DNA of 64,000 bases from Candidatus Dojkabacteria bacterium (GTDB lineage Bacteria > Patescibacteriota > Dojkabacteria > B142 > OLB20), in the NCBI GenBank assembly GCA_035444565.1, contig DAOMOX010000001.1, positions 322,335-386,334 of the forward strand. The letters run 5' to 3'. A model generated the notes under the pieces. The model was not told where the DNA came from, made no database searches, and saw nothing but the letters and a program-made list of their open reading frames with translations. This document shows positions 8,456 to 48,815 of the stretch, piece by piece; position 1 is the stretch's first letter; each line of letters begins with the position of its first letter. The position numbers and the translations under genes are program-made.

Positions 8456-10537
8456 TTATAATGCACAACTAGTCTTCGGATAATACCTCTGTGCAAATCC
8501 TATTCCAGCTGCTCCAAAGTCTGCAATATTTAACTTCCCATCTCTATTTACATCTCTTCCTCCACAAGAACCATACTCAACATCTTTATCTGCACAAGTA
8601 TTTTTTCCAGTTCCATAGCTTTTAGCAAATTCTGCAAAGTCAGCAATACTGAATTTTCCATCTCCATCCACATCAGCTTTACCACAGATATTCCCTGTAA
8701 CTGGAAGTGTTGGTGTGGCACTTGGAACTGGTGTCAGTGCATTTGATGGTGTTGGTGTTGTACTTGGAGTAATTGAAGGCCCAGGTGTTCGAGTTAATGT
8801 CGGAGTTAAAGATGCACCAGGTGTTTGAGTTGGCGTCGCGGACTGTATTGGTGTTGGGGTACTGGTGTTATAGACCCCTCCGAACTCTATTGCCCCTATA
8901 TCAGGAGTTCCTGTCCTGGTATTTCTCAAAAAATCTTGCGATCTCACTAATTGTGGGATATTAGTTTGGTTAGCACCAGTCCCATTTGATCCTGTATTTA
9001 TTGCGGGACTATTTTGTTTTAATCGATAATTATTAATGTCTAAAGCAGCCCTTAATGCTGCGATATCTAGTGTCTCAGGTCCGATATTTGGATAAACAAG
9101 ATTCAATTCTATTAATGAGTTTACTAATCCAGGATCGTTAGTATAAACATCTCCTGTTCCTTTAACTGAATTGTCAACATTTGTTGGTAATATATTATTT
9201 CTGCGTAGGAATTGGTCATTTCCACTCAGTTGGACATTAATTCTAGCTGATGGATTCTTTCTTCGGTCGAAAATATTATTTTCCATGATTCCTGTTAACA
9301 CTCCATCACCTGAAGATCCTCCCCCATGCTGGATGTGTAGGAGCGAATCCAGTTCCTTTCCAGCAACCAAAGTATTATTTCCAAAGTATATTTGTCTGTT
9401 GTCCCCTATGTGACTACCATTTGTCCCTGTAATAAAGAATCCCATATTAACTATTAAATTATTATAGATAGCAATATTTGTATTCATTGTAGTGGCCTCA
9501 TCCGTATGCCCCTTTTCATTTCGTAGTCCAAGTCTCCAATACCCAGTGGCCTCACTATCTTCATCACCGCCAGCTTTGGGTTTTTTCAATTCTGGGGCAT
9601 AGAATGTATTATTTCTTGCTATAGCATCCTGTACCATTCCAGCATAAAAACTATTTTTATTTCCAACTACAACATTATTTTCAAATAAAAATCCTTTGGA
9701 CCCTGGTTGGGGAGCCAATTCACCTTCACCCCATGCAAATACATTTCCTCTTATAATTGAATTCACTCCACCAAAAGAGGCACTAATATTGACACAATAC
9801 TTTTTAATCTTTTCGTTCTCAGGAGTCGTTTTCGGCTGACAAGCACCTGCCACCCTGACATTATATTCGTCACCTATAGATGTTCTTGTCATAACGTTAT
9901 CAATAAACTGAAAATTATTCATTTTTGTTTGAAATACATCTTTTTGACTGAAAGCCGGCTCTGCATATATACCCGAGGTAGAAGTCCAATCTATCATCGA
10001 ATTTTTGATGGTAATGTTATTGGCAGTTGCACTTGTTGTAGACGTGGAAACTCCTATCCCTCTACCACAGGAATTCCGTATGAAAAGACCATCAATTGTC
10101 ACGTGATCAGCATCTCGAATAGCCAATAAGGCAGCAAACATCCCTTTGTTTGAGCATTTTGTATTCCAAACTGAAACGATATTATTCCAGTTGTTATTCA
10201 ACATCCCCGGAGCGAAGCCCCCATCAATTATAGCTTTATGCTTATTTTCAGCTCTCCAAGTAACGTTCGATTTCCTAAGGGTGATGTAACCGGAATAGAC
10301 ACCATCTTTAAGAACAACAGTATCGCCAGGAGAAGCGCTTGCATCAGCCTTCACCAAAGTTTTCCATGGACTCGAAGTTGTCCCTGGGTTGCTATCGGAT
10401 CCATTTGGAGATAAGTAGTAAATTGTTGCTGCCGAGTCATCCTCGGGTGACCACTCTTGGAACACTAATAAACTCGAAACCATAAGGACTAGTATCCCTA
10501 TTACTGCTAAAGCTAGTGTAAATACTGGTTTCCTCAT
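8456..10537 (-). CDS. Secreted parallel beta-helix protein with Thr/Pro linker and C-terminal Cys-containing dockerin-like Ca-binding module; paralog 2
   Basis: 693 aa. About 70% identical to paralog 1 in the beta-helix part. C-terminus DVDGDGKFSIADFAEF...DVNRDGKLNIADFGAA has two dockerin-type DxDxDG loops plus 4 Cys. Confidence 0.6.
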   Translation of the reverse strand: MRKPVFTLALAVIGILVLMVSSLLVFQEWSPEDDSAATIYYLSPNGSDSNPGTTSSPWKTLVKADASASPGDTVVLKDGVYSGYITLRKSNVTWRAENKHKAIIDGGFAPGMLNNNWNNIVSVWNTKCSNKGMFAALLAIRDADHVTIDGLFIRNSCGRGIGVSTSTTSATANNITIKNSMIDWTSTSGIYAEPAFSQKDVFQTKMNNFQFIDNVMTRTSIGDEYNVRVAGACQPKTTPENEKIKKYCVNISASFGGVNSIIRGNVFAWGEGELAPQPGSKGFLFENNVVVGNKNSFYAGMVQDAIARNNTFYAPELKKPKAGGDEDSEATGYWRLGLRNEKGHTDEATTMNTNIAIYNNLIVNMGFFITGTNGSHIGDNRQIYFGNNTLVAGKELDSLLHIQHGGGSSGDGVLTGIMENNIFDRRKNPSARINVQLSGNDQFLRRNNILPTNVDNSVKGTGDVYTNDPGLVNSLIELNLVYPNIGPETLDIAALRAALDINNYRLKQNSPAINTGSNGTGANQTNIPQLVRSQDFLRNTRTGTPDIGAIEFGGVYNTSTPTPIQSATPTQTPGASLTPTLTRTPGPSITPSTTPTPSNALTPVPSATPTLPVTGNICGKADVDGDGKFSIADFAEFAKSYGTGKNTCADKDVEYGSCGGRDVNRDGKLNIADFGAAGIGFAQRYYPKTSCAL

Positions 10538-10586
10538 AACTAACGATAATAATTATTAAATATCTAAATTTCTTTATACTTCAATC

Positions 10587-12566
10587 TTATATTGCGCAGC
10601 TTAATTTCGGATAATACCTCTGTGCAAATCCTATTCCGGCTGCTCCAAAATCTGCTATATTTAATTTCCCATCTCTATTTACATCTCGACCACCACAAGA
10701 TCCATATTCAACATCTTTATCTGCACATGTATTTTTTCCTGTTCCGTAACTTTTAGCAAACTCTGCAAAATCAGCAATACTAAATTTTCCGTCTCCATCG
10801 ATGTCTGCTTTCCCACATATATTTCCCGTAATTGGTGGAGTTGGAGTATTTGACGCAGCAAGAGGTGGTGTTGGCTTCAAAGTTAGAGTCGGTGTCAATG
10901 TTGGGGTGGACCCAAGACTTGTAGTAGGTGTTGGTGATGTTTGCACTTGTGTAGCTGTCACCAAAGGCGTAGGAGTACTGGTATTGTATACACCGCCGTA
11001 TTCGACTGCCCCAATATCTGGATTTCCTACTCTACTATTTTTGAAAAAATCTTGTGATTTCGCTAACTGTGGAATTTGATATGTAGTATGAGTTGTTGTA
11101 CTAATGCCTGCATTTATTGCTGGACTCGATTGTTTCAATCTGTAATTATTAAGATCCACAGCTGCACGCAAAGCAGTCATGTCAACAGTTGCAGCACCTA
11201 TTGCAGGTATTGGATAATTCAACTGAACCAATGAATTTTGCAATTCCGGATTCGTTGTATAGATATCACCAGGTCCTTTGGTATTGCTTTGAGCAGAAGC
11301 TGGTAAAATATTATTTCTGAATACCAAGTCATCATTCCCACTCAGCGCTGCTTTAATTGTTGCAGAAGGGTCTTTGCTTACATCGAAAATATTATTCTCA
11401 ATTAATCCTGTAATTTTGGAGTCAGACCCATCTCTGGGTGCAAAAACAATATTAAACAAATCATTTGTCTCTTTACCGGTCACTAATGTATTATGACCAA
11501 AATAAACGTTTGTAGTATTCGACGAATAATCTTTATGGTAACCGGAAAAAAGGAAACTGTTATTAAGTATTATATTGTTATAGTAAGCGACATTATTTAA
11601 TCCTGAGGCATAATTTCCCCAACGAGCATCTTTCTCATTACGTGACGAAATGTGCCAATCGTTCTCGTTACCGTTTTTCTTCTCCCAGTGGGTATTTGGA
11701 TTAAGTTGTGATTCAGGAGCCCAGAAGAGATTATTGCGCACAATCACACCATCGGCCCAACCATTATAAAAATTGTTTTTATTTCCAATAATAATATTAT
11801 CTTCAAATAATAGGTTTCGAGAACCCGTCATTGCAATTTCTCCACGTCCCCAAGCAATGATATTGCCTCTCACTACCATGTCCTCACCACTCATATGAAT
11901 ACTAATGTTTACATTGTAGTCATTGCTTGTATATACAGTATATTGATCGTTAAACGAAATTCTTGTAAGTTCATTATTTATCATCTGCAAACCTTTAGTC
12001 TTTCCAGAAACGTAAAATCCAGATACAAAAGTCCAATCAATTCTATTATTTAAAAACTTCGAGTAGTTAACATTCTCGGCAACTAAAACACCTCGACCAC
12101 AGGAGTTTCGCAAGAATAACCCCTCTACCTCAACATTATCAGCCGAAACCGCTACTAACGGAGACCACATCCCTATATTTTTACATTTAGAATCCCAGGC
12201 TGAAACAATATTCTTCCACTCCCCATTAAGTAAACCAGGTCCAAAACCTCCGTCGATAATCGCTTTATGTTTGTTTTCTGCTCTCCAAGTGGTATTGGGT
12301 TTATTGATATTAAAATATGCGCTATATGTACCGTCTTTCAGGATAACAGTATCTCCTGCAGAGATACTACTCATAGCCTTAGAGATAGTCTTCCAGGGAG
12401 ACGAGTTACTTCCGTTATTAGAATCATTCCCATTTGGGGAGAGATAATATACTGATGCTGCGCTATCGTCTTGTGGTGCCCTATCCTGATAAAACAAGAA
12501 TGCGGTGATTGCCAACAAAAAAATACCTAAGGAAAATAATCCTAAAACTACGGCTTTTTCTCTCAT
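10587..12566 (-). CDS. Secreted parallel beta-helix protein with C-terminal dockerin-like module; paralog 3
   Basis: 659 aa. Same N-terminal YYLSPNGNDSN signature. C-terminal 79 aa nearly identical to paralog 2. Confidence 0.6.
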   Translation of the reverse strand: MREKAVVLGLFSLGIFLLAITAFLFYQDRAPQDDSAASVYYLSPNGNDSNNGSNSSPWKTISKAMSSISAGDTVILKDGTYSAYFNINKPNTTWRAENKHKAIIDGGFGPGLLNGEWKNIVSAWDSKCKNIGMWSPLVAVSADNVEVEGLFLRNSCGRGVLVAENVNYSKFLNNRIDWTFVSGFYVSGKTKGLQMINNELTRISFNDQYTVYTSNDYNVNISIHMSGEDMVVRGNIIAWGRGEIAMTGSRNLLFEDNIIIGNKNNFYNGWADGVIVRNNLFWAPESQLNPNTHWEKKNGNENDWHISSRNEKDARWGNYASGLNNVAYYNNIILNNSFLFSGYHKDYSSNTTNVYFGHNTLVTGKETNDLFNIVFAPRDGSDSKITGLIENNIFDVSKDPSATIKAALSGNDDLVFRNNILPASAQSNTKGPGDIYTTNPELQNSLVQLNYPIPAIGAATVDMTALRAAVDLNNYRLKQSSPAINAGISTTTHTTYQIPQLAKSQDFFKNSRVGNPDIGAVEYGGVYNTSTPTPLVTATQVQTSPTPTTSLGSTPTLTPTLTLKPTPPLAASNTPTPPITGNICGKADIDGDGKFSIADFAEFAKSYGTGKNTCADKDVEYGSCGGRDVNRDGKLNIADFGAAGIGFAQRYYPKLSCAI

Positions 12567-12648: not shown

Positions 12649-14976
12649 CTACAATGAACAACTCGGTGCTGGATAGTACCTCTGAGCGAACGCTGAAAAA
12701 TCAGCAATAGAGACTTTTCCATCATTATCTCGATCTATTCCCCCGCAAGGTCCGTGGTTTACACCTCTATCTGAACAACTACTTTTGTATTTTCTTGCAA
12801 AATTAGAAAAATCATACAAATCAAACCTTCCGTTACTATCCAAATCTGCTGGACCGCATACAATTGCATTTACATTTGTGGGTGTAACAGTGGATGGTGT
12901 CACAGAAATACTTGGTCGTGCTGTAGGAGTTGTAGATGTAACAGGCTTAATTGTCGGAGTAACCGAGACATTTGGACTAACCACAGGACTCGAAACAGGG
13001 GTGCTAGGCCTTGGTGTAGGAGTATTAGAAGGAGTTGTGCCCCCAGTCTGCTGAGCCTTTACCATTGCACTATGAGCATTAATTCTCTTCCCTGTTACTA
13101 TTTTTCCAGATAGCGCAGGTAAAGGATCCCCTGTTTCTAAAATAATATTTTGCACTTGTGTGGTAGTCAAACTTGGCTTATAACCCCAAATTAAACCAGC
13201 CAATCCGACGACGTGGGGAGTAGCCATAGAAGTTCCTTGAAAAAATTCATATTTATTACTCATTCCATCAGAGTAATGAGCAATATTTAAATCCTCGATG
13301 AAACAGCCCATGTATACGTTATCGGCTGCATTTGTATTCCATACAAACCGTAGTCTCATGTTCTCAGTTAAAAATTTTTGAGAAACTGGCACACTATCAA
13401 AATAATATTGAGATACTCCACTCTCGAGTGTATCCCCGGTTAACGCATCTAGAACATGTTCGTTCCATCTAAAGGCAAAGGTTGGAGCACCTGGGAAAGG
13501 TATAGACTCGAAGTTGATACCATCCGCACTCATTTGTAATTCAATATTATCCCATGGTTCAACTGAATCATATTCCGTATCACACAAGGCAACAAAACTT
13601 ATAGAAGCATTATTCTTTTTCAAGTTTGCTTTTGGAGATGTAATATAGTTATTCGCTTGATTGGTATATGGGGGTGCATCCTTCTCTGTTTTTAATAAAT
13701 TCCCAACAGATTCATCTAGGTATAAAGTTCCCCATTTAGGGTTTGTGCCTCCTGTAGTCCATCCTGTCGGCAAAGCAGGTGCTTGTGCATTATTAAAGTT
13801 TTCATCCATCAATTTCTCATGTGAGACAGAACTATAGATTGATTGTCCAGGAGCTGCTATATCAACACGGCCTAATCCATAATCAGAGAAATCCGCCAAA
13901 CTATCGTTTTGGTCTGTTGCAGCTACGCAAATAATATTCGCCGAGTCGTAGTCACAAGGATATCCACTCAAGGTGTTATGATCCCTATTTGAATTTCCAG
14001 CCGATGCAACGAATAATCCAGGGTATGCCTCTATAGCCTGTTTCATTGCATAGTCATACGAAGGACCTCCAAAACTAGCATTAATAACTTTTGCACCATT
14101 GTATTTGGCAAAATTAATAGATTTGACTATTCCTATAGATGTTAATTCTGTCTTTATTGCCATAATTTTGGCATTTGGTGCAACCCCCACTATTCCATAG
14201 TTGTTATTCTTGGCGGCAGCAATAGTACCTGCAATATGTGTTCCGTGTGAAGAATTAGTAGGCAATGGAATTTTATCGTTGTCTTCGAAATCATAACCAT
14301 ACATACATCCACCTAATGTTTGATTGTTTTCATTTTTACAATTCTGTCCATTCCACATATTTGCCTTTAAGTCAGGGTGGTTATAGGCAACACCCGTATC
14401 TATAACTGCGACAATAATTTCACCATTTATCCCTTCATTCACTGCCCAAGCCTCAGGCGCATCGATATCGGCATCCGCTACAGACGGACTCCCCTCTATC
14501 ACTTGACCAGAATTGTGTAAACCCCAAAGCTTGTCTTTATCGGGATCGTTTGTATTTATTGAAGCATACCTGTAGATATAGTTAGGCTGAACGAATTCAA
14601 CATTCTCATCTAATTTCATTTCGTTAATAATTTCATCAACATTTCTATCAGTTCTAAAGAGTTGCACATTTGAGGATAAATCAGCGTCAACATCTCTAAC
14701 TTCATGCTTATTCATAAACATCCACAGCTTAGGAGCAACCAAGGAAGATTGTAGATTGATTTTTTCCTTTTTATATTTAACAATAAATTCTCCAGGTACA
14801 ACATTTAGGTCTGTATCCTCCGAAATAGATTCTGTTGGAGCTTTTGCATTAACATCGTCAATACCTGCACTATAATTCCCAGGTGAGAAATCTCTAAATA
14901 TAAAATAAGTCGCTACACCTACTACTATTAGGAGGAATAGCCCTAGGGAGAACATTATTCGAACTGCTGTTTTCAT
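12649..14976 (-). CDS. Subtilisin-like serine protease (peptidase S8) with I9 propeptide, Pro/Thr/Ser linker and C-terminal dockerin-like module
   Basis: 775 aa. Catalytic triad motifs DTGVAYNHPDL, HGTHIAGTIAA, GTSMATPHVVGLAGL. C-terminal CGPADLDSNGRFDLYDF...DRDNDGKVSIADFSAF shows the same Cys/dockerin pattern. Confidence 0.8.
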   Translation of the reverse strand: MKTAVRIMFSLGLFLLIVVGVATYFIFRDFSPGNYSAGIDDVNAKAPTESISEDTDLNVVPGEFIVKYKKEKINLQSSLVAPKLWMFMNKHEVRDVDADLSSNVQLFRTDRNVDEIINEMKLDENVEFVQPNYIYRYASINTNDPDKDKLWGLHNSGQVIEGSPSVADADIDAPEAWAVNEGINGEIIVAVIDTGVAYNHPDLKANMWNGQNCKNENNQTLGGCMYGYDFEDNDKIPLPTNSSHGTHIAGTIAAAKNNNYGIVGVAPNAKIMAIKTELTSIGIVKSINFAKYNGAKVINASFGGPSYDYAMKQAIEAYPGLFVASAGNSNRDHNTLSGYPCDYDSANIICVAATDQNDSLADFSDYGLGRVDIAAPGQSIYSSVSHEKLMDENFNNAQAPALPTGWTTGGTNPKWGTLYLDESVGNLLKTEKDAPPYTNQANNYITSPKANLKKNNASISFVALCDTEYDSVEPWDNIELQMSADGINFESIPFPGAPTFAFRWNEHVLDALTGDTLESGVSQYYFDSVPVSQKFLTENMRLRFVWNTNAADNVYMGCFIEDLNIAHYSDGMSNKYEFFQGTSMATPHVVGLAGLIWGYKPSLTTTQVQNIILETGDPLPALSGKIVTGKRINAHSAMVKAQQTGGTTPSNTPTPRPSTPVSSPVVSPNVSVTPTIKPVTSTTPTARPSISVTPSTVTPTNVNAIVCGPADLDSNGRFDLYDFSNFARKYKSSCSDRGVNHGPCGGIDRDNDGKVSIADFSAFAQRYYPAPSCSL

Positions 14977-15540: not shown

Positions 15541-16605
15541 ATGTCAAAAATCATAATATTTTTACTTTTGCTTTTATCTTTAGGGGTAATAGGAGGAATC
15601 CTAGGTTTTTCTTATTACAAAAGCACCTTGGATAATAGCTTAGGTTTGGAAGAAGATAAAATTTTCACTATCAAAGCTGGGGATAGTGTTGAAAAGATCT
15701 TAGATAACCTTGAGAAGGAAGGCATCCTGAAAAATAAACAATTATTTTTAATTTATCTCAAGCTTAACTCGGAAGAAGCTGCGAATTTCAAAGCAGGTAA
15801 ATTTATTATAGAAAAAGACTCAAATCTACTTGAGCTTACAAAAACTTTCCAAGATGCCTCCACCAACAGAGATGATATTGCGGTATTAATTCAAGAAGGG
15901 CTTCGTTACGACGAAATCGCAGATATACTAAAAGAAGCCTACACCGAAGTTCCAGAGAGTAAATTTCTTGCATCGGAGTATATTTCAATTTCGGAGAATC
16001 CAGATGATTACAAATTCACGCAAAATGTTGCGACTTTCCTAGCCGACTACAAACCTGCCAATAAAAATCTTGAAGGCTTCTTATACCCAGAAACATATTA
16101 TTTCTCTAAAACAGCAACTGCACAAGATGTAATTGAAAAGCAGATTTTAACCCTCTCGGAGAAAATTTCCACAGATGATTACAAAGAAATTGATAATAAT
16201 GATTACACATTTTACGAACACCTTGTAATTGCAAGCATGATTGAGAGAGAAGCATTTTCTTCGGACGAAAAAGCCGACATTGCAGATGTAATTTTCAAAA
16301 GATTAGAAAATGGGATTCAAGGAGTAAAGTTGTTACAAATTGATGCAACTTTGCTCTACCAAGCAAAAGATTGGAAAGCAAACCCCTTTTTAATAAAAGA
16401 TGTAGATGGACCATACAATACATACAAAAGGACAGGTTTACCACCAACCCCAATTTCAAATCCTGGTATTGACTCGCTTCTTGCCTCACTATATCCTAAT
16501 AGTAATAATTACTATTTCTATCTTCACGATTCTGATGGAAATATTCATTTCGCAGAAGACTCATCAGAGCATAACGCTAACGTGAGGAAATACATAAATA
16601 ATTAA
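15541..16605 (+). CDS. mltG: Endolytic murein transglycosylase MltG (YceG-like)
   Basis: 354 aa. N-terminal TM. Motifs FLYPETYYF, LVIASMIEREA, YNTYKRTGLPPTPISNPG are characteristic of the YceG family. Confidence 0.8.
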   Translation: MSKIIIFLLLLLSLGVIGGILGFSYYKSTLDNSLGLEEDKIFTIKAGDSVEKILDNLEKEGILKNKQLFLIYLKLNSEEAANFKAGKFIIEKDSNLLELTKTFQDASTNRDDIAVLIQEGLRYDEIADILKEAYTEVPESKFLASEYISISENPDDYKFTQNVATFLADYKPANKNLEGFLYPETYYFSKTATAQDVIEKQILTLSEKISTDDYKEIDNNDYTFYEHLVIASMIEREAFSSDEKADIADVIFKRLENGIQGVKLLQIDATLLYQAKDWKANPFLIKDVDGPYNTYKRTGLPPTPISNPGIDSLLASLYPNSNNYYFYLHDSDGNIHFAEDSSEHNANVRKYINN

Positions 16606-16964
16606 TGAAACTTAAGAAAAAGCTTGGAAAACTGAAATTTGAATTAAATTTGACACGATTTCAGGTTTTTGGCGTTATCACCTGGATTTTTTTAATTCTG
16701 GTTTTACCTATTTCAATAGATTTGTATTCAAAATATAACGCTACAGAAGCCAATGGTTCTACACAAACTCAGAACAGAGTTGCTGGAGCAGCAACAGAAA
16801 GTGATAATCCATTCACATATACAGTTAATCTAGAAGACAAAAAAGAACTCGTATCTACCCTCACCATGGTTTTTGGTGGTATTTCTACTGTGATAGCTTT
16901 GGTCAGCCTCGTTTTATTATTCAAAGAGAATAAAAAAGAACGCACAGGTGTATTTATCAACTAG
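16605..16964 (+). CDS. Small membrane protein, hypothetical
   Basis: 119 aa. Two hydrophobic segments. No recognisable family. Confidence 0.3.
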   Translation: MKLKKKLGKLKFELNLTRFQVFGVITWIFLILVLPISIDLYSKYNATEANGSTQTQNRVAGAATESDNPFTYTVNLEDKKELVSTLTMVFGGISTVIALVSLVLLFKENKKERTGVFIN

Positions 16965-17223
16965 GAAAATTCATTATTATATTGAGGCAACCGTTAGCTC
17001 CGTAGAGCCGATGGGTTCGTTTACCTTGGTAAGGTTTGGGAAGCGTCATCTCGCGAAACCTCCTTCTGAATGTTTATTACAAGAAGGACAGAAAGTAGAA
17101 GTCACTATAGATCCGTACAAGAATACACTCATTAATATTGCGTCAGTAACATGTACAAGGTGTCCGTTAAAAGGGAATGCGTGTAGATATGGGATTGAGG
17201 GTTATAAAAGTAAACCTCTATGA
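16948..17223 (+). CDS. Small Cys-motif protein (paralog A of a tandem triplet), hypothetical
   Basis: 91 aa. Shares ...C.L.EG..V.V.I......L...AS..C..CP... pattern with the two following ORFs. Confidence 0.4.
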   Translation: MYLSTRKIHYYIEATVSSVEPMGSFTLVRFGKRHLAKPPSECLLQEGQKVEVTIDPYKNTLINIASVTCTRCPLKGNACRYGIEGYKSKPL

Positions 17224-17304
17224 ATCTACCGTAACTTCAGCCTCCGATTGACCATTTGACACTGATGATGTATTATCGCAATTAATAATTAACTCTAAAT
17301 AATA

Positions 17305-17562
17305 ATGGGAGAAGATATCTATACAGTATGTTCTATAAAATTTAACCCAAATACTAGGCGAAATGATGTTGAATTTGAGGGTGGATTCACCTCGGACACA
17401 GCAGAAGGTTGTACGCTTAATCCAGGAGAGCAAGTGGGAGTACCTATTCAAATCGATGTGCGAACAGTATTATTTAAATCTGCTGCTGAAGCATGTCAGT
17501 CATGCCCTGTTTTTGATGAATGTGGGAGAGGCTTGATAGGCTCTTATCCAGAAACTGTATAA
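17305..17562 (+). CDS. Small Cys-motif protein (paralog B)
   Basis: 85 aa. GCTLNPGEQVGVPIQID...AAEACQSCP aligns with A and C. Confidence 0.4.
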   Translation: MGEDIYTVCSIKFNPNTRRNDVEFEGGFTSDTAEGCTLNPGEQVGVPIQIDVRTVLFKSAAEACQSCPVFDECGRGLIGSYPETV

Positions 17563-17611
17563 TTTAAAGATCTTAATCAGTTAATATAATTACCTTTGTT
17601 AAATTAATACT

Positions 17612-17845
17612 ATGGCTTTCGAATTTCAGACAGTAACTGCAGTGATGAGAACTCCATCGAATACGCAAGTTCAAATATTGGAAGGTTATTCAGGTGCCAC
17701 TACGCCAGACGGCTGTATCATGGAAGAGGGAAAAATTTTAAAGGTCAAGTCCCCAATAAAGCACGTACTTGTTCAATTCGCCTCAGCAGCATGTAAAAAC
17801 TGTCCATTATTGGATGATTATACAGTAGGAAGTGTTCTCAGATAA
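17612..17845 (+). CDS. Small Cys-motif protein (paralog C)
   Basis: 77 aa. GCIMEEGKILKVKSP...ASAACKNCP aligns with A and B. Confidence 0.4.
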   Translation: MAFEFQTVTAVMRTPSNTQVQILEGYSGATTPDGCIMEEGKILKVKSPIKHVLVQFASAACKNCPLLDDYTVGSVLR

Positions 17846-17965: not shown

Positions 17966-19006
17966 TCACGGATTCACGATAACCTTCCCAGGATAATCAA
18001 CTTCCCCAATACTCATTTCGTATATCAACTTGGGAAAATCTTCTAAGCTGACTTCAAGCGAAACCATCTTTTGAACAGGGAATGCCTCTGGGTATTCGGT
18101 TTTAAGTTTGAAAGCTTCCAGAAAATCATCTCTTCCACATCCATAAGCACCGGCAAGATAAAGTATTTTATTTTCAAATTGTATCTTTTGAAAATCCTCA
18201 TTTCTTCTAATTGAATCAATGTTGATTTCTGAATTTAGATAGGTGTCTGCTTTCTTGGTTCCACCATAAAGAAATACGACTCCCTCCTCTTTAACCATTT
18301 GATGTGCCACATTCAAAGTTTCATCGCTGATAATTGTGGGTACGACTACAACAATGTCAAAAGTATCTTTGTAGCTTTCATATTCTTCCAGTCTAATTAA
18401 TTTAGCTTCTGACAATAGTCCCTGTTCCTTCACAAAGCTTAGTCTCTCATCTCCTCTATTAAATACAGAAATCTGAGCTCCATAATGACTAAATAACATT
18501 GAGAATAATGTTCCGGAATTCCCTGCGCCTATTACTGCGATATTCTTTCCGTTGAATTCGTCGACTTTCATGTGATGCCTTAACACATTTACACTATGAA
18601 CGATGCACGCAAATGGTTCTGGTTGCCATTTTGGGTTTATTGCGGTCTCGGCAGGAATTTCTATCAGAGCTTCGTGTAAAGTATCTTTGTCCCCTGTTAC
18701 TTTAAAAAAGTGTGCATAACCAGTTGTCCGATTCGGAGTAATATTGGGATTAAATGTGACCATAGTTCCTCGCGTATAACCAGTATGTGAACCAGCAAAT
18801 TCTATTTCTCCAATAATCTCATGACCAAACAAAGGTCCTCTATCTTCTGGGATATCACGGGAACCAGTTAATTCTTTAACATCTGCTCTACAAATACCCA
18901 TATAGTGAAGTTTTACTATTACTTCGTTTTCATTTCCTGTCTCGAATGAGTTATCGACAATTTCTACTTTACCATTATTTAATTTAGCAGACTTAAATTT
19001 GATCAT
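17966..19006 (-). CDS. Zinc-dependent alcohol dehydrogenase family (MDR superfamily) oxidoreductase
   Basis: 346 aa. GHEIIGEIE zinc-ligand region and NIAVIGAGNSG Rossmann motif. Confidence 0.6.
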   Translation of the reverse strand: MIKFKSAKLNNGKVEIVDNSFETGNENEVIVKLHYMGICRADVKELTGSRDIPEDRGPLFGHEIIGEIEFAGSHTGYTRGTMVTFNPNITPNRTTGYAHFFKVTGDKDTLHEALIEIPAETAINPKWQPEPFACIVHSVNVLRHHMKVDEFNGKNIAVIGAGNSGTLFSMLFSHYGAQISVFNRGDERLSFVKEQGLLSEAKLIRLEEYESYKDTFDIVVVVPTIISDETLNVAHQMVKEEGVVFLYGGTKKADTYLNSEINIDSIRRNEDFQKIQFENKILYLAGAYGCGRDDFLEAFKLKTEYPEAFPVQKMVSLEVSLEDFPKLIYEMSIGEVDYPGKVIVNP

Positions 19007-19653: not shown

Positions 19654-19725
19654 TCCGCGGTAGCTCAATGGTGGAGCGATCGGCTGTTAACCGAATGGTT
19701 AGAGGTTCGAGTCCTCTCCGCGGAG
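19654..19725 (+). tRNA. tRNA-Asn (anticodon GTT)
   Basis: Cloverleaf folded by hand: acceptor TCCGCGG/CCGCGGA, D arm GCTC-AATGGTG-GAGC, anticodon arm ATCGG-CTGTTAA-CCGAA (one A.A mismatch at 27:43), T arm AGAGG-TTCGAGT-CCTCT, discriminator G. No encoded CCA. Confidence 0.8.
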
Positions 19726-19894: not shown

Positions 19895-20182
19895 ATGATG
19901 GCAAAAAAGGTGTGTGATAAAGGGCATAAGTTTACAAAAAGCAGCGATTGTTTGACCTGCCCTATCTGTGCAAAGGAAGAATCAGAATCAATCTACACAA
20001 ATGGATATCCAAAAGTCGGGTCTCCAGCTTTGAATGCGCTAAAACACAATGGAATTACTCCCTCGGATTTAACAAAATATTCAGAAGAAGAATTGCTTAA
20101 AATTCATGGTATTGGCCCAAAGGCTATAGACATACTACGTATATATCTTAACGAAAAAGGCTTAAAATTTAGAAATAAGTAA
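19895..20182 (+). CDS. Small zinc-ribbon plus helix-hairpin-helix protein, putative nucleic-acid binding
   Basis: 95 aa. CDKGHKF...CLTCPIC zinc ribbon. LLKIHGIGPKAIDILRIYL HhH motif. Confidence 0.4.
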   Translation: MMAKKVCDKGHKFTKSSDCLTCPICAKEESESIYTNGYPKVGSPALNALKHNGITPSDLTKYSEEELLKIHGIGPKAIDILRIYLNEKGLKFRNK

Positions 20183-44413: not shown

Positions 44414-44487
44414 GCACCAATAGCTCAGATGGATAGAGCGCCACTTTGCGGAAGTGGAGGTCGCAGGTTCGAATCCTGCTTGGTGCA
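44414..44487 (+). tRNA. tRNA-Arg (anticodon read as GCG; verify)
   Basis: Hand fold: acceptor GCACCAA/TTGGTGC, D arm GCTC-AGATGGATA-GAGC, anticodon arm CCACT-TTGCGGA-AGTGG, T arm GCAGG-TTCGAAT-CCTGC, discriminator A. G37 fits CGN readers. Confidence 0.75.
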
Positions 44488-47684: not shown

Positions 47685-48815
47685 ATGAAAATCTCTTTAA
47701 TACAAGAAAATCTTGCAAAAGCTTTACTGTACATAAATAAGGCAGTTAGCTCTCGACCGAACATTCCAATTTTAGCGAACGTATTGCTGGAAACCGAGAA
47801 GGGGAAGCTAAAGCTGTCGGCTACGAATCTGGATATCGGAATTAGTACCTGGATTGGTGCAACTGTAGCGGAAGAAGGAAAGATAACAGTTTCAGCAAAA
47901 ATGCTCTCAGACTTCGTGAATTCCTTGAAGTCAGGGAAGATCGAACTTCTTCAGCAAGGACAAACACTTGTGGTTAAGTCTGTGGATAACATCGCCGAGT
48001 TTTATATTATTCCTGCAGAAGACTTTCCAAGGGTACCCCAAGTAGAAGGTGACCCATTACTGGAGATTGATTCGACGACATTGTCAGAGACTTTCACAAA
48101 GACAGCTTTTGCAGCTAGCAATGATGAGTCCAGGCCAGTATTAACAGGACTTTTGTTCAAAGGGAGTAAAAAAAGACTGACAATTGTTGGAGTTGATGGT
48201 TTTCGATTATCAAAAAAAGAAATTATGCTAGAAGAAGATTTGGGAAGTAAAGAGTTTGAAGAGATAGTTCCTGCTCGTGCCGTTTCAGAAGTAGAAAGTC
48301 TAATAAAAGACATGACAGGAAAAAACGACAAGGTTCAAGTTTATCTACTTGGAAATAAAAACCAAATGTTGTTTAAAATTGGAGATGTGGAGTTGAGCAC
48401 AAGACTTATCGAAGGTAAATTTCCAGAATATGACAATATTTTGCCAAAAGATCATAAATTCGAATGTAAAGTAGAAAAATCAGGTCTGAACGATATGTTA
48501 AAAGTTGTTAGTATCTTTGCTAGAAATGTAGTGGGAAATAAAACAAAGTTTAAAATTGATGGCTCAGAATCAAAACTCAAACTTTCCACATCTGTTGTAG
48601 ATATCGGAAACAACGAAAGTGAAATTACAGTAAAAGAGCTTGATGGTGAAGACTTTGAGACTGCCTTTAATGTCAAATTCCTTCAAGACATGGTCAATAC
48701 CATGACAAGTGAAATTATCACATTTCAGACAAACGGGCCAACAGCTCCCGGAGTTTTCCTCGATCCCAAAGACAAAAACTTCATACATGTCGTGATGCCA
48801 ATGAGAGTTGAGTAG
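47685..48815 (+). CDS. dnaN: DNA polymerase III beta sliding clamp
   Basis: 376 aa. N-terminal MKISLIQENLAKALLYINKAV...LANVLLE. Three-domain length. Confidence 0.9.
   Translation: MKISLIQENLAKALLYINKAVSSRPNIPILANVLLETEKGKLKLSATNLDIGISTWIGATVAEEGKITVSAKMLSDFVNSLKSGKIELLQQGQTLVVKSVDNIAEFYIIPAEDFPRVPQVEGDPLLEIDSTTLSETFTKTAFAASNDESRPVLTGLLFKGSKKRLTIVGVDGFRLSKKEIMLEEDLGSKEFEEIVPARAVSEVESLIKDMTGKNDKVQVYLLGNKNQMLFKIGDVELSTRLIEGKFPEYDNILPKDHKFECKVEKSGLNDMLKVVSIFARNVVGNKTKFKIDGSESKLKLSTSVVDIGNNESEITVKELDGEDFETAFNVKFLQDMVNTMTSEIITFQTNGPTAPGVFLDPKDKNFIHVVMPMRVE

Follow-up and report, generated by a model that had tools for sequence, protein, structure and literature searches.

A lineage-restricted orphan family of small cysteine-motif proteins encoded in tandem downstream of mltG in Candidatus Dojkabacteria

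A 64,000-nucleotide (nt) stretch of a Candidatus Dojkabacteria bacterium genome (contig DAOMOX010000001.1, positions 322,335 to 386,334 of the forward strand; hereafter the window) carries, a short way past the housekeeping gene mltG, a tandem array of three small open reading frames (ORFs), named here ORF1, ORF2, and ORF3. We find that the three are genuine paralogs, and that they belong to a narrow, lineage-restricted orphan family found in Candidatus Dojkabacteria and close relatives. With moderate confidence, we propose that these paralogs are small metal-stabilised proteins, in which a barrel resembling the oligonucleotide/oligosaccharide-binding (OB) fold and a C-terminal tail would be joined by a four-cysteine centre. 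An earlier sequence-only reading of the same DNA had noticed the array; all three ORFs lie on the plus strand, just where that reading had put them (Table 1).

ORF1, ORF2, and ORF3 align with one another over their whole length. BLASTP related ORF3 to both ORF1 (E = 1e-8) and ORF2 (E = 9e-9), whereas ORF1 and ORF2 gave no direct match to each other and are joined transitively through ORF3. A family profile hidden Markov model (HMM) built without ORF2 nevertheless scored this protein at 36.1 bits, and the best of 2000 shuffled ORF2 sequences reached 9.9 bits. The earlier suggestion of diverged tandem paralogs is therefore upheld, beyond what chance would give. No DNA-level repeats were found between the array copies, which implies either that the duplications are old or that the copies have diverged fast. 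The GC content of the array, 0.37 to 0.39, is close to that of its flanks, 0.33 to 0.35. The family HMM detected no additional copy in the 64-kb window.

The array genes are under constraint at the protein level. The ratio of nonsynonymous to synonymous substitution (dN/dS, Nei-Gojobori) is 0.16 to 0.49 among ORF1 orthologs and 0.23 to 0.45 among genes of the 77-amino-acid (aa) accessory type, with amino acid identities across genomes of 55 to 86% and 35 to 73%, respectively. The corresponding values are 0.04 to 0.18 for mltG (77 to 99% identity) and 0.03 to 0.13 for TM119 (79 to 96% identity), a membrane protein gene that lies between mltG and the array. Nonsynonymous change in the array genes is about 3 to 8 times faster than in these neighbours, and the constraint on them indicates that they are coding. 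A lack of conservation, which the sequence-only reading had named together with a lack of expression as a sign of spurious ORFs, was not what we observed; orthologs exist, and their cysteines and glycine are conserved.

The family is small and confined in its distribution. A word-seeded search of 5.8e9 proteins returned ORF1 to ORF3 themselves and four ORF1 orthologs, and nothing else. When the family profile was run with HMMER against 1.84e9 cluster representatives, 12 proteins were obtained at E <= 1e-3, eight of which are real small members of 62 to 89 aa (P0001, P0003, P0009, P0010, P0011, P0013, P0015, and P0017); they carry no protein name, and their hosts are Candidatus Dojkabacteria and relatives, P0011 being assigned to Dojkabacteria. 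A second seeded search added one further member, P0018. The MltG protein and the 119-aa TM119 product of the window are identical to NCBI proteins from metagenome-assembled genomes labelled "Candidatus Dojkabacteria bacterium." No viral or phage relatives were found in IMG/VR scans or by tblastn against INPHARED, and a literature search on Dojkabacteria plus cysteine found nothing relevant. Neither ORF1 to ORF3 nor any of the 14 aligned members had an above-threshold match in Pfam, NCBIfam, PHROGs, or PADLOC, and PDB sequence profiles gave nothing under an E value of 0.18. The family thus stays unrecognised, as it had been to the sequence-only reading, and no profile of a housekeeping family, a clear match to which would have overturned that reading, reached threshold.

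Several candidate relatives were rejected. P0008 (4832 aa), P0012 (1868 aa), and P0016 (1043 aa) are repeat proteins rich in Thr, Gly, and Val, and only their N-terminal strand region aligned. P0014 (583 aa, eukaryote-like) aligned only over "A..AC..C," in three repeats; these repeats, ...A(Q/K)(R/K)ACGRCLVKGDVVYTTVD..., match profile positions 38 to 78 at E = 1e-6, which we take to be a local match to the Cys motif. The sole ORF1 match in the set of species-representative genomes, from Aquabacterium parvum (L010, 35% identity), lies antisense to a 244-aa gene in DNA of 56 to 70% GC, scores E = 2.3 with the family HMM, and is a chance match.

Conservation was assessed in an alignment of 14 sequences, the distant members P0015 and P0017 among them, using ORF1 numbering. 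Every sequence has C42, C69, C72, and G82, and S66, P73, and C79 are each conserved in at least 90% of the sequences. The family pattern is C-x25-28-C-x2-C-P-x(2-9)-C-x2-G, with Cys spacings of 25-28/2/3-10 and a single invariant Gly, three residues past the last Cys. The sequence-only reading had recognised the CxxCP motif but had counted three conserved cysteines; there are four, plus the glycine, and the metal binding that it proposed is plausible from the pattern, for a site of four cysteines rather than three. In the window ORF3, the codon for the fourth Cys is replaced by one for Tyr (TAT), whereas a 96%-identical strain (L024-L026, P0003) has Cys (TGT). As had been noted before, no N-terminal hydrophobic segment or signal peptide is visible in the sequences of ORF1 to ORF3, and they contain no transmembrane (TM) segment. 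Net charge varies across the family from +5.6 to -7.5, which argues against a common nucleic-acid-binding surface.

A small OB or β-barrel fold, also proposed in the sequence-only reading, is weakly suggested for the N-terminal half. AlphaFold2 (AF2) models of ORF1, from a 9-sequence alignment, and of ORF2, from a 13-sequence alignment, had mean predicted local distance difference test (pLDDT) scores of 54.5 and 58.3; in both models the N-terminal 50 to 60 residues form four to five strands, with pLDDT of about 70. Searches of the PDB with Foldseek, using these low-confidence models as queries, matched only OB-type barrels (E = 0.035 to 0.4), namely, the PAN N-domain, IF1, S1, the TOBE domains of MalK, SugC, and ModE, and Mop/tungbindin.

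The array had been described as sitting between mltG and an oxidoreductase gene. The array does not, however, abut mltG, since TM119 intervenes, and the oxidoreductase is not a fixed neighbour. TAATG holds both the stop of mltG and the start of TM119, and the 3' end of TM119 runs 17 nt into ORF1, past its GTG start; in locus L020, ORF1 starts instead 12 nt past the TM119 stop, at "(M)YIEKTV." The gene order ruvX, mltG, TM119, ORF1 is found in every clade locus, and ORF1 directly follows TM119 in all loci examined, the single-copy loci L005 and L027 included. TM119 has no Pfam family, and only five TM119 clusters at at least 77% identity are present among the 5.8e9 proteins. We conclude that TM119 is an orphan as clade-restricted as ORF1; a clade-specific membrane protein gene has been joined to the ruvX-mltG operon. 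Downstream of the array lie a gene for an oxidoreductase resembling alcohol dehydrogenase (ADH) and a gene for a 150-aa TM protein. The ADH-like gene is missing in L013 and is therefore not a fixed partner, and in L005 an inserted gene stands between the array and the oxidoreductase.

These observations can be drawn together in a model. Each protein would consist of an N-terminal, β-rich, OB-like barrel of about 60 residues, as the AF2 models predict, followed by a short C-terminal tail. The four conserved cysteines would form one metal centre, either a structural Zn2+ site or an Fe-S cluster. The first Cys would belong to a loop of the barrel that leads into the conserved "L-x-E/P-G-x-x-V-x-V" strand and the other three to the tail motif A-S-x-x-C-x-x-C-P-x(2-9)-C-x-x-G, so that the metal centre may pin the tail onto the barrel. 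Only Cys, Pro, and Gly are fixed while surface and charge change fast, a pattern that most likely points not to enzymes but to small modules, stabilised by metal, with a binding or regulatory role. They are probably cytoplasmic. ORF1 would be translated through coupling within the ruvX-mltG-TM119 operon and, judging by gene linkage, probably works with TM119; ORF2 and ORF3 may have their own promoters and are gained, exchanged, and lost between strains.

A number of points weigh against this model. The AF2 models are of low confidence overall (mean pLDDT 54 to 58), the Cys tail has pLDDT below 50, and the two models differ on the segment before CxxC, which is a strand in one and a helix in the other. 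Every fold and profile similarity is below significance. The spacing to the last Cys, 3 to 10 residues, is loose for a canonical cubane motif, and the lack of the fourth Cys in ORF3 means either that this ligand is replaceable or that the copy is decaying. Finally, the gene for the distant member P0017 is a single copy located 3' of a GreA-C-like ORF and 5' of a NUDIX gene, with no TM119 nearby, so the partnership with TM119 is not family-wide.

The cysteine pattern calls for comparison with the WhiB-like (Wbl) proteins (PF02467), which are likewise small, occur as several paralogs per genome, and have four cysteines arranged C-x(~27)-C-x2-C-x5-C. Spacings of 26-28/2/5-6 occur in the array family, and the 27/2/5 spacing of ORF2 is identical to that of WhiB1, whose Cys ligands are C9, C37, C40, and C46 (PMC6282962), and the local motif A-x-x-x-C-x-x-C-P-V-x-x-E-C is common to both. 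Pfam Whib matched one of the 14 members below threshold (E = 0.075; 14.0 bits against a cutoff of 23.6), as did the WhiB-like PHROGs phrog_1821 (E = 0.062), phrog_31604 (E = 0.21), and phrog_10071 (E = 0.36), the last of these covering the first Cys through CxxC, and the ORF2 model places a helix directly before CxxC. However, hhalign against a seven-member Wbl alignment gave a probability of only 29%, over 20 columns; the G[V/I]WGG turn past the last Cys is absent from all 14 aligned members; the N-terminal half is predicted, in the low-confidence models, to be β, whereas Wbl proteins are all-α; and the last Cys spacing of 3 to 10 departs from theirs. The host, moreover, is a bacterium of the candidate phyla radiation (CPR) and not an actinobacterium, and Wbl proteins are reported in the literature from no hosts other than Actinobacteria and from the phages of these bacteria (PMC6282962; PMC13013590). 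We conclude that the array family is not a Wbl member and that the resemblance is at the level of the motif only. It is correspondingly unlikely that the proteins act in a WhiB-like manner, as small [4Fe-4S] sensors of redox state or of NO or O2 that bind a partner, for example a sigma factor, by the surface near the cluster, with the paralogs serving distinct outputs as in Wbl.

Sub-threshold matches of the CxxCP...C stretch recur on [4Fe-4S] motifs. In addition to Whib and the WhiB-like PHROGs, the radical S-adenosylmethionine (SAM)/SPASM profile TIGR04269 matched the Cys motif over 37 residues (E = 0.0035), with 16.4 bits against a cutoff of 370 bits. SPASM and twitch domains share the C-x2-C-x5-C triplet and a remote fourth Cys, a typical arrangement of [4Fe-4S] ligands, and the C-x6-C-x2-C-x5-C loop of endonuclease III (Endo III) and MutY is similar. 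Unlike these, the array proteins are stand-alone, with no radical-SAM or glycosylase core; membership in the SPASM/twitch group was rejected, since the cutoff was far from reached and 77 to 91 aa is too short for a radical-SAM core. As to the nature of the centre, the C-x2-C-x5/6-C triplet with its remote Cys and the WhiB1 spacing of ORF2 make us lean towards a putative [4Fe-4S] cluster, whereas a tolerant structural Zn site would be the easier fit to the variable last spacing and to the Cys-to-Tyr variant.

The N-terminal half was compared with TOBE and Mop domains, β-barrels of about 60 to 70 residues with an "L.pG..V.v.I" strand, for which there were weak matches in both sequence and fold. 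Mop genes encode small stand-alone proteins and are sometimes found in tandem, as with the tandem mop genes of clostridia. TOBE_2 (PF08402) aligned with ORF1 residues 12 to 57 (E = 0.02; 15.4 bits against a cutoff of 21) but with no other of the 14 members, and Foldseek matched the low-confidence ORF1 model to the MalK and SugC TOBE domains, ModE, tungbindin, and MopII at E values of 0.08 to 0.4. Alignment of family residues 8 to 56 with the ModC TOBE domain by hhalign was topologically sensible (P 0.014), yet the probabilities against the TOBE/Mop regions of E. coli ModC, ModE, MalK, UgpC, CysA, and PotA were only 0.2 to 3%, over 22 to 51 columns. TOBE and Mop domains also have no Cys4 tail, and nothing around the array suggests transport or oxyanions; genes for molybdate or tungstate transporters, or ATP-binding cassette (ABC) genes of any kind, are not found near it. 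Membership in TOBE/Mop (PF08402, PF03459) was rejected, and we think it very unlikely that the proteins are molbindin-like, in which case they would be small barrels that oligomerise and take an oxyanion or some other small molecule as ligand, with the Cys tail as an add-on.

The N-domain of RseC/MucC was considered as well. It too is β-rich, has four cysteines, and is tied to a two-TM element, and "P.C.E.L.pGQKVE..I" is a local feature in common. In RseC, however, the Cys cluster precedes that strand, whereas it follows the strand in the array family, and the TM helices of RseC are part of the same chain, whereas ORF1 to ORF3 have none. There was no Pfam match to RseC/MucC (PF04246) even at E values up to 10, hhalign against E. 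coli RseC gave a probability of 0.9% over 17 columns, and membership was rejected.

Tandem diversification had reminded the sequence-only reading of immunity proteins, and a search for toxin genes beside related loci had been advised. Fast evolution, with amino acid identity of 35 to 78% where that of mltG is 83 to 97%, variable copy number, recombination mosaics, and the lineage-specific character of these small proteins would all suit proteins with an immunity, antitoxin, or anti-phage function that diversify in the course of conflict, but no toxin, nuclease, polymorphic-toxin, or secretion gene stands beside the array in any of about 25 loci, PADLOC gave no matches at E values up to 1, and the IMG/VR and INPHARED searches gave no phage or viral relatives. 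In addition, a housekeeping operon is the fixed site of the core copy, and dN/dS is below 0.5 throughout. The analogy was not borne out, and a role in conflict is, in our estimation, quite improbable.

An extension of the preferred metal-centre model can also be imagined. The family might represent an undescribed Fe-S mini-protein outside Actinobacteria, with a WhiB/SPASM-type C-x27-C-x2-C-x5-C site on an OB-like barrel; its core copy would dock on a TM119-type membrane protein co-translated with MltG and link redox or iron status to cell-wall remodelling in a CPR bacterium of ultra-small size, the accessory copies being exchangeable modulators. We regard this as a long shot. There is no evidence for an unusual mechanism or a new kind of system, and orphan families of small proteins are common in CPR genomes.

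Copy number differs among related loci. Three copies are present in the window, in L002/L003, and in L024-L026. Two copies, ORF1 plus one 77-aa accessory gene, are found in L006-L009, L014-L019, L013, and L020; L001 has one copy and a frameshifted second; and L005, where a Metallophos gene is next, and L027-L029 have one. The 77-aa counterparts of ORF3 in L006, L013, and L020 are 35 to 48% identical to it. L006 keeps about 60 nt of the ORF2 5' end, and roughly the next 200 nt are deleted, which indicates that ORF2 was lost there and not gained in the window. We conclude that ORF1 is the conserved core copy and that ORF2 and ORF3 are dispensable accessory copies. Comparison of L025 with the window gave 0 to 1% divergence over ORF2, ORF3, the spacers, and the 150-aa TM protein gene, in contrast to 15% over ORF1 (17007-17223), mostly between C42 and C69, and about 14% in the middle of the ADH-like gene (18100-18500). 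The accessory genes of L006 and L020 differ by a dS of 0.34, and the flanking mltG genes by a dS of 1.8. These patches look like recombination tracts or strain mosaics.

The spacers of the array contain two promoter-like sites (Table 1). The block at 17248-17276 is kept in the window, L006, L013, and L020, even though the downstream gene differs; the number of promoter-like sites in the array region is not above shuffle expectation. No terminator-like structure was found 3' of ORF3 (z score of 0.42).

Such turnover raises the question of whether these are spurious ORFs, or whether ORF2 and ORF3 are decaying, non-functional duplicates. PGAP-style names and accessions are missing for the array ORFs and present for their neighbours, ORF2 and ORF3 have no obvious Shine-Dalgarno sequence ahead of them, and the ORF2 deletion in L006, the frameshifted second copy in L001, and the missing fourth Cys of the window ORF3 point the same way; however, dN/dS is well below 1 for both core and accessory types, frames are intact and Cys and Gly are kept in lineages where mltG dS is saturated, distant intact members exist (P0015 and P0017), and the profile is significant against 1.84e9 proteins. 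We consider this explanation highly unlikely. Least credible of all, to the point of being nearly dismissed, is that these small, Cys-bearing, tandemly diversified ORFs, with their weak SPASM-profile match on the Cys motif, are precursors of Cys-containing bacteriocins or ribosomally synthesized and post-translationally modified peptides (RiPPs), given that no RiPP maturase (radical-SAM, lanthipeptide, or cyclodehydratase), protease (C39 peptidase), or exporter (ABC) gene is found among the called genes and Pfam labels in the flanking 4 to 6 kb of related loci, and that whole-length conservation, a predicted β-domain, a length of 77 to 91 aa, and the lack of a conserved double-glycine leader are unlike a leader-core peptide.

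Table 1. Positions of the array, its partner gene, and other features in the 64,000-nt window
Feature	Position	Strand	Description
TM119	16605-16964	+	119 aa; two predicted TM helices (about residues 19-40 and 85-106; hydropathy); partner gene of ORF1
ORF1	16948-17223	+	91 aa; GTG start; isoelectric point (pI) 9.3; Cys 42/69/72/79, Gly 82; core copy
ORF2	17305-17562	+	85 aa; acidic, pI 4.3; Cys 36/64/67/73, spacing 27/2/5; accessory copy
ORF3	17612-17845	+	77 aa; pI 6.5; Cys 35/61/64, Tyr70 in place of fourth Cys; accessory copy
Promoter-like TTGACC-17 nt-TATTAT	17248-17276	+	ORF1-ORF2 spacer; pattern match, consensus scan 10/12
Promoter-like TTTAAA-16 nt-TATAAT	17563-17590	+	ORF2-ORF3 spacer; pattern match, consensus scan 10/12
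Run of β-helix paralogs	8456-12566	-	Proteins of about 660-700 aa
S8 peptidase	12649-14976	-	C-terminal twin repeat
tRNA gene	19654-19725	+	Rfam RF00005, 66.7 bits
95-aa ORF	19895-20182	+	N-terminal C-x11-C-x2-C-P-x-C
tRNA gene	44414-44487	+	Rfam RF00005, 70.6 bits
dnaA	46015-47475		Bac_DnaA, E = 2.6e-66
dnaN	47685-48815		DNA_pol3_beta, E = 3.5e-30

Other features of the surroundings were recorded. The chromosomal origin region, with dnaA and dnaN, is about 28 kb from the array. A tRNA gene stands just past the TM-protein gene 3' of the array, and Rfam found nothing in the window beyond the two tRNAs listed in Table 1. The 95-aa ORF has no Pfam match at E values up to 1e-5; it was missed by the family HMM and thus stands apart from the array family as a small Cys protein of its own. 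From inspection of the translations by eye only, a similar C-terminal twin repeat (D.D.NG.....DF..FA..Y ... C), dockerin-like in appearance, is shared by the S8 peptidase and the Metallophos protein of L005 (544-2007 of that locus, minus strand). Upstream of the S8 peptidase stands a run of paralogous proteins with matches to Pel9A-like right-handed β-helix and DUF1565 families, and such runs are also found in L013 and L014.

The finding has no bearing on any long-standing question. If the Cys4 site is real, the family would be a compact scaffold for metal binding, hitherto uncatalogued and limited to a single CPR lineage, and would join the many small lineage-specific proteins that account for the unexplained share of CPR proteomes. 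The loci with one, two, and three copies, together with the deletion remnant, the frameshifted copy, and the Cys-to-Tyr variant, form a natural series for the birth, exchange, and loss of paralogs. The fixed linkage of ORF1 to mltG and to an orphan membrane protein leads to the hypothesis that the core copy may be the cytoplasmic partner of a membrane complex associated with the cell wall.

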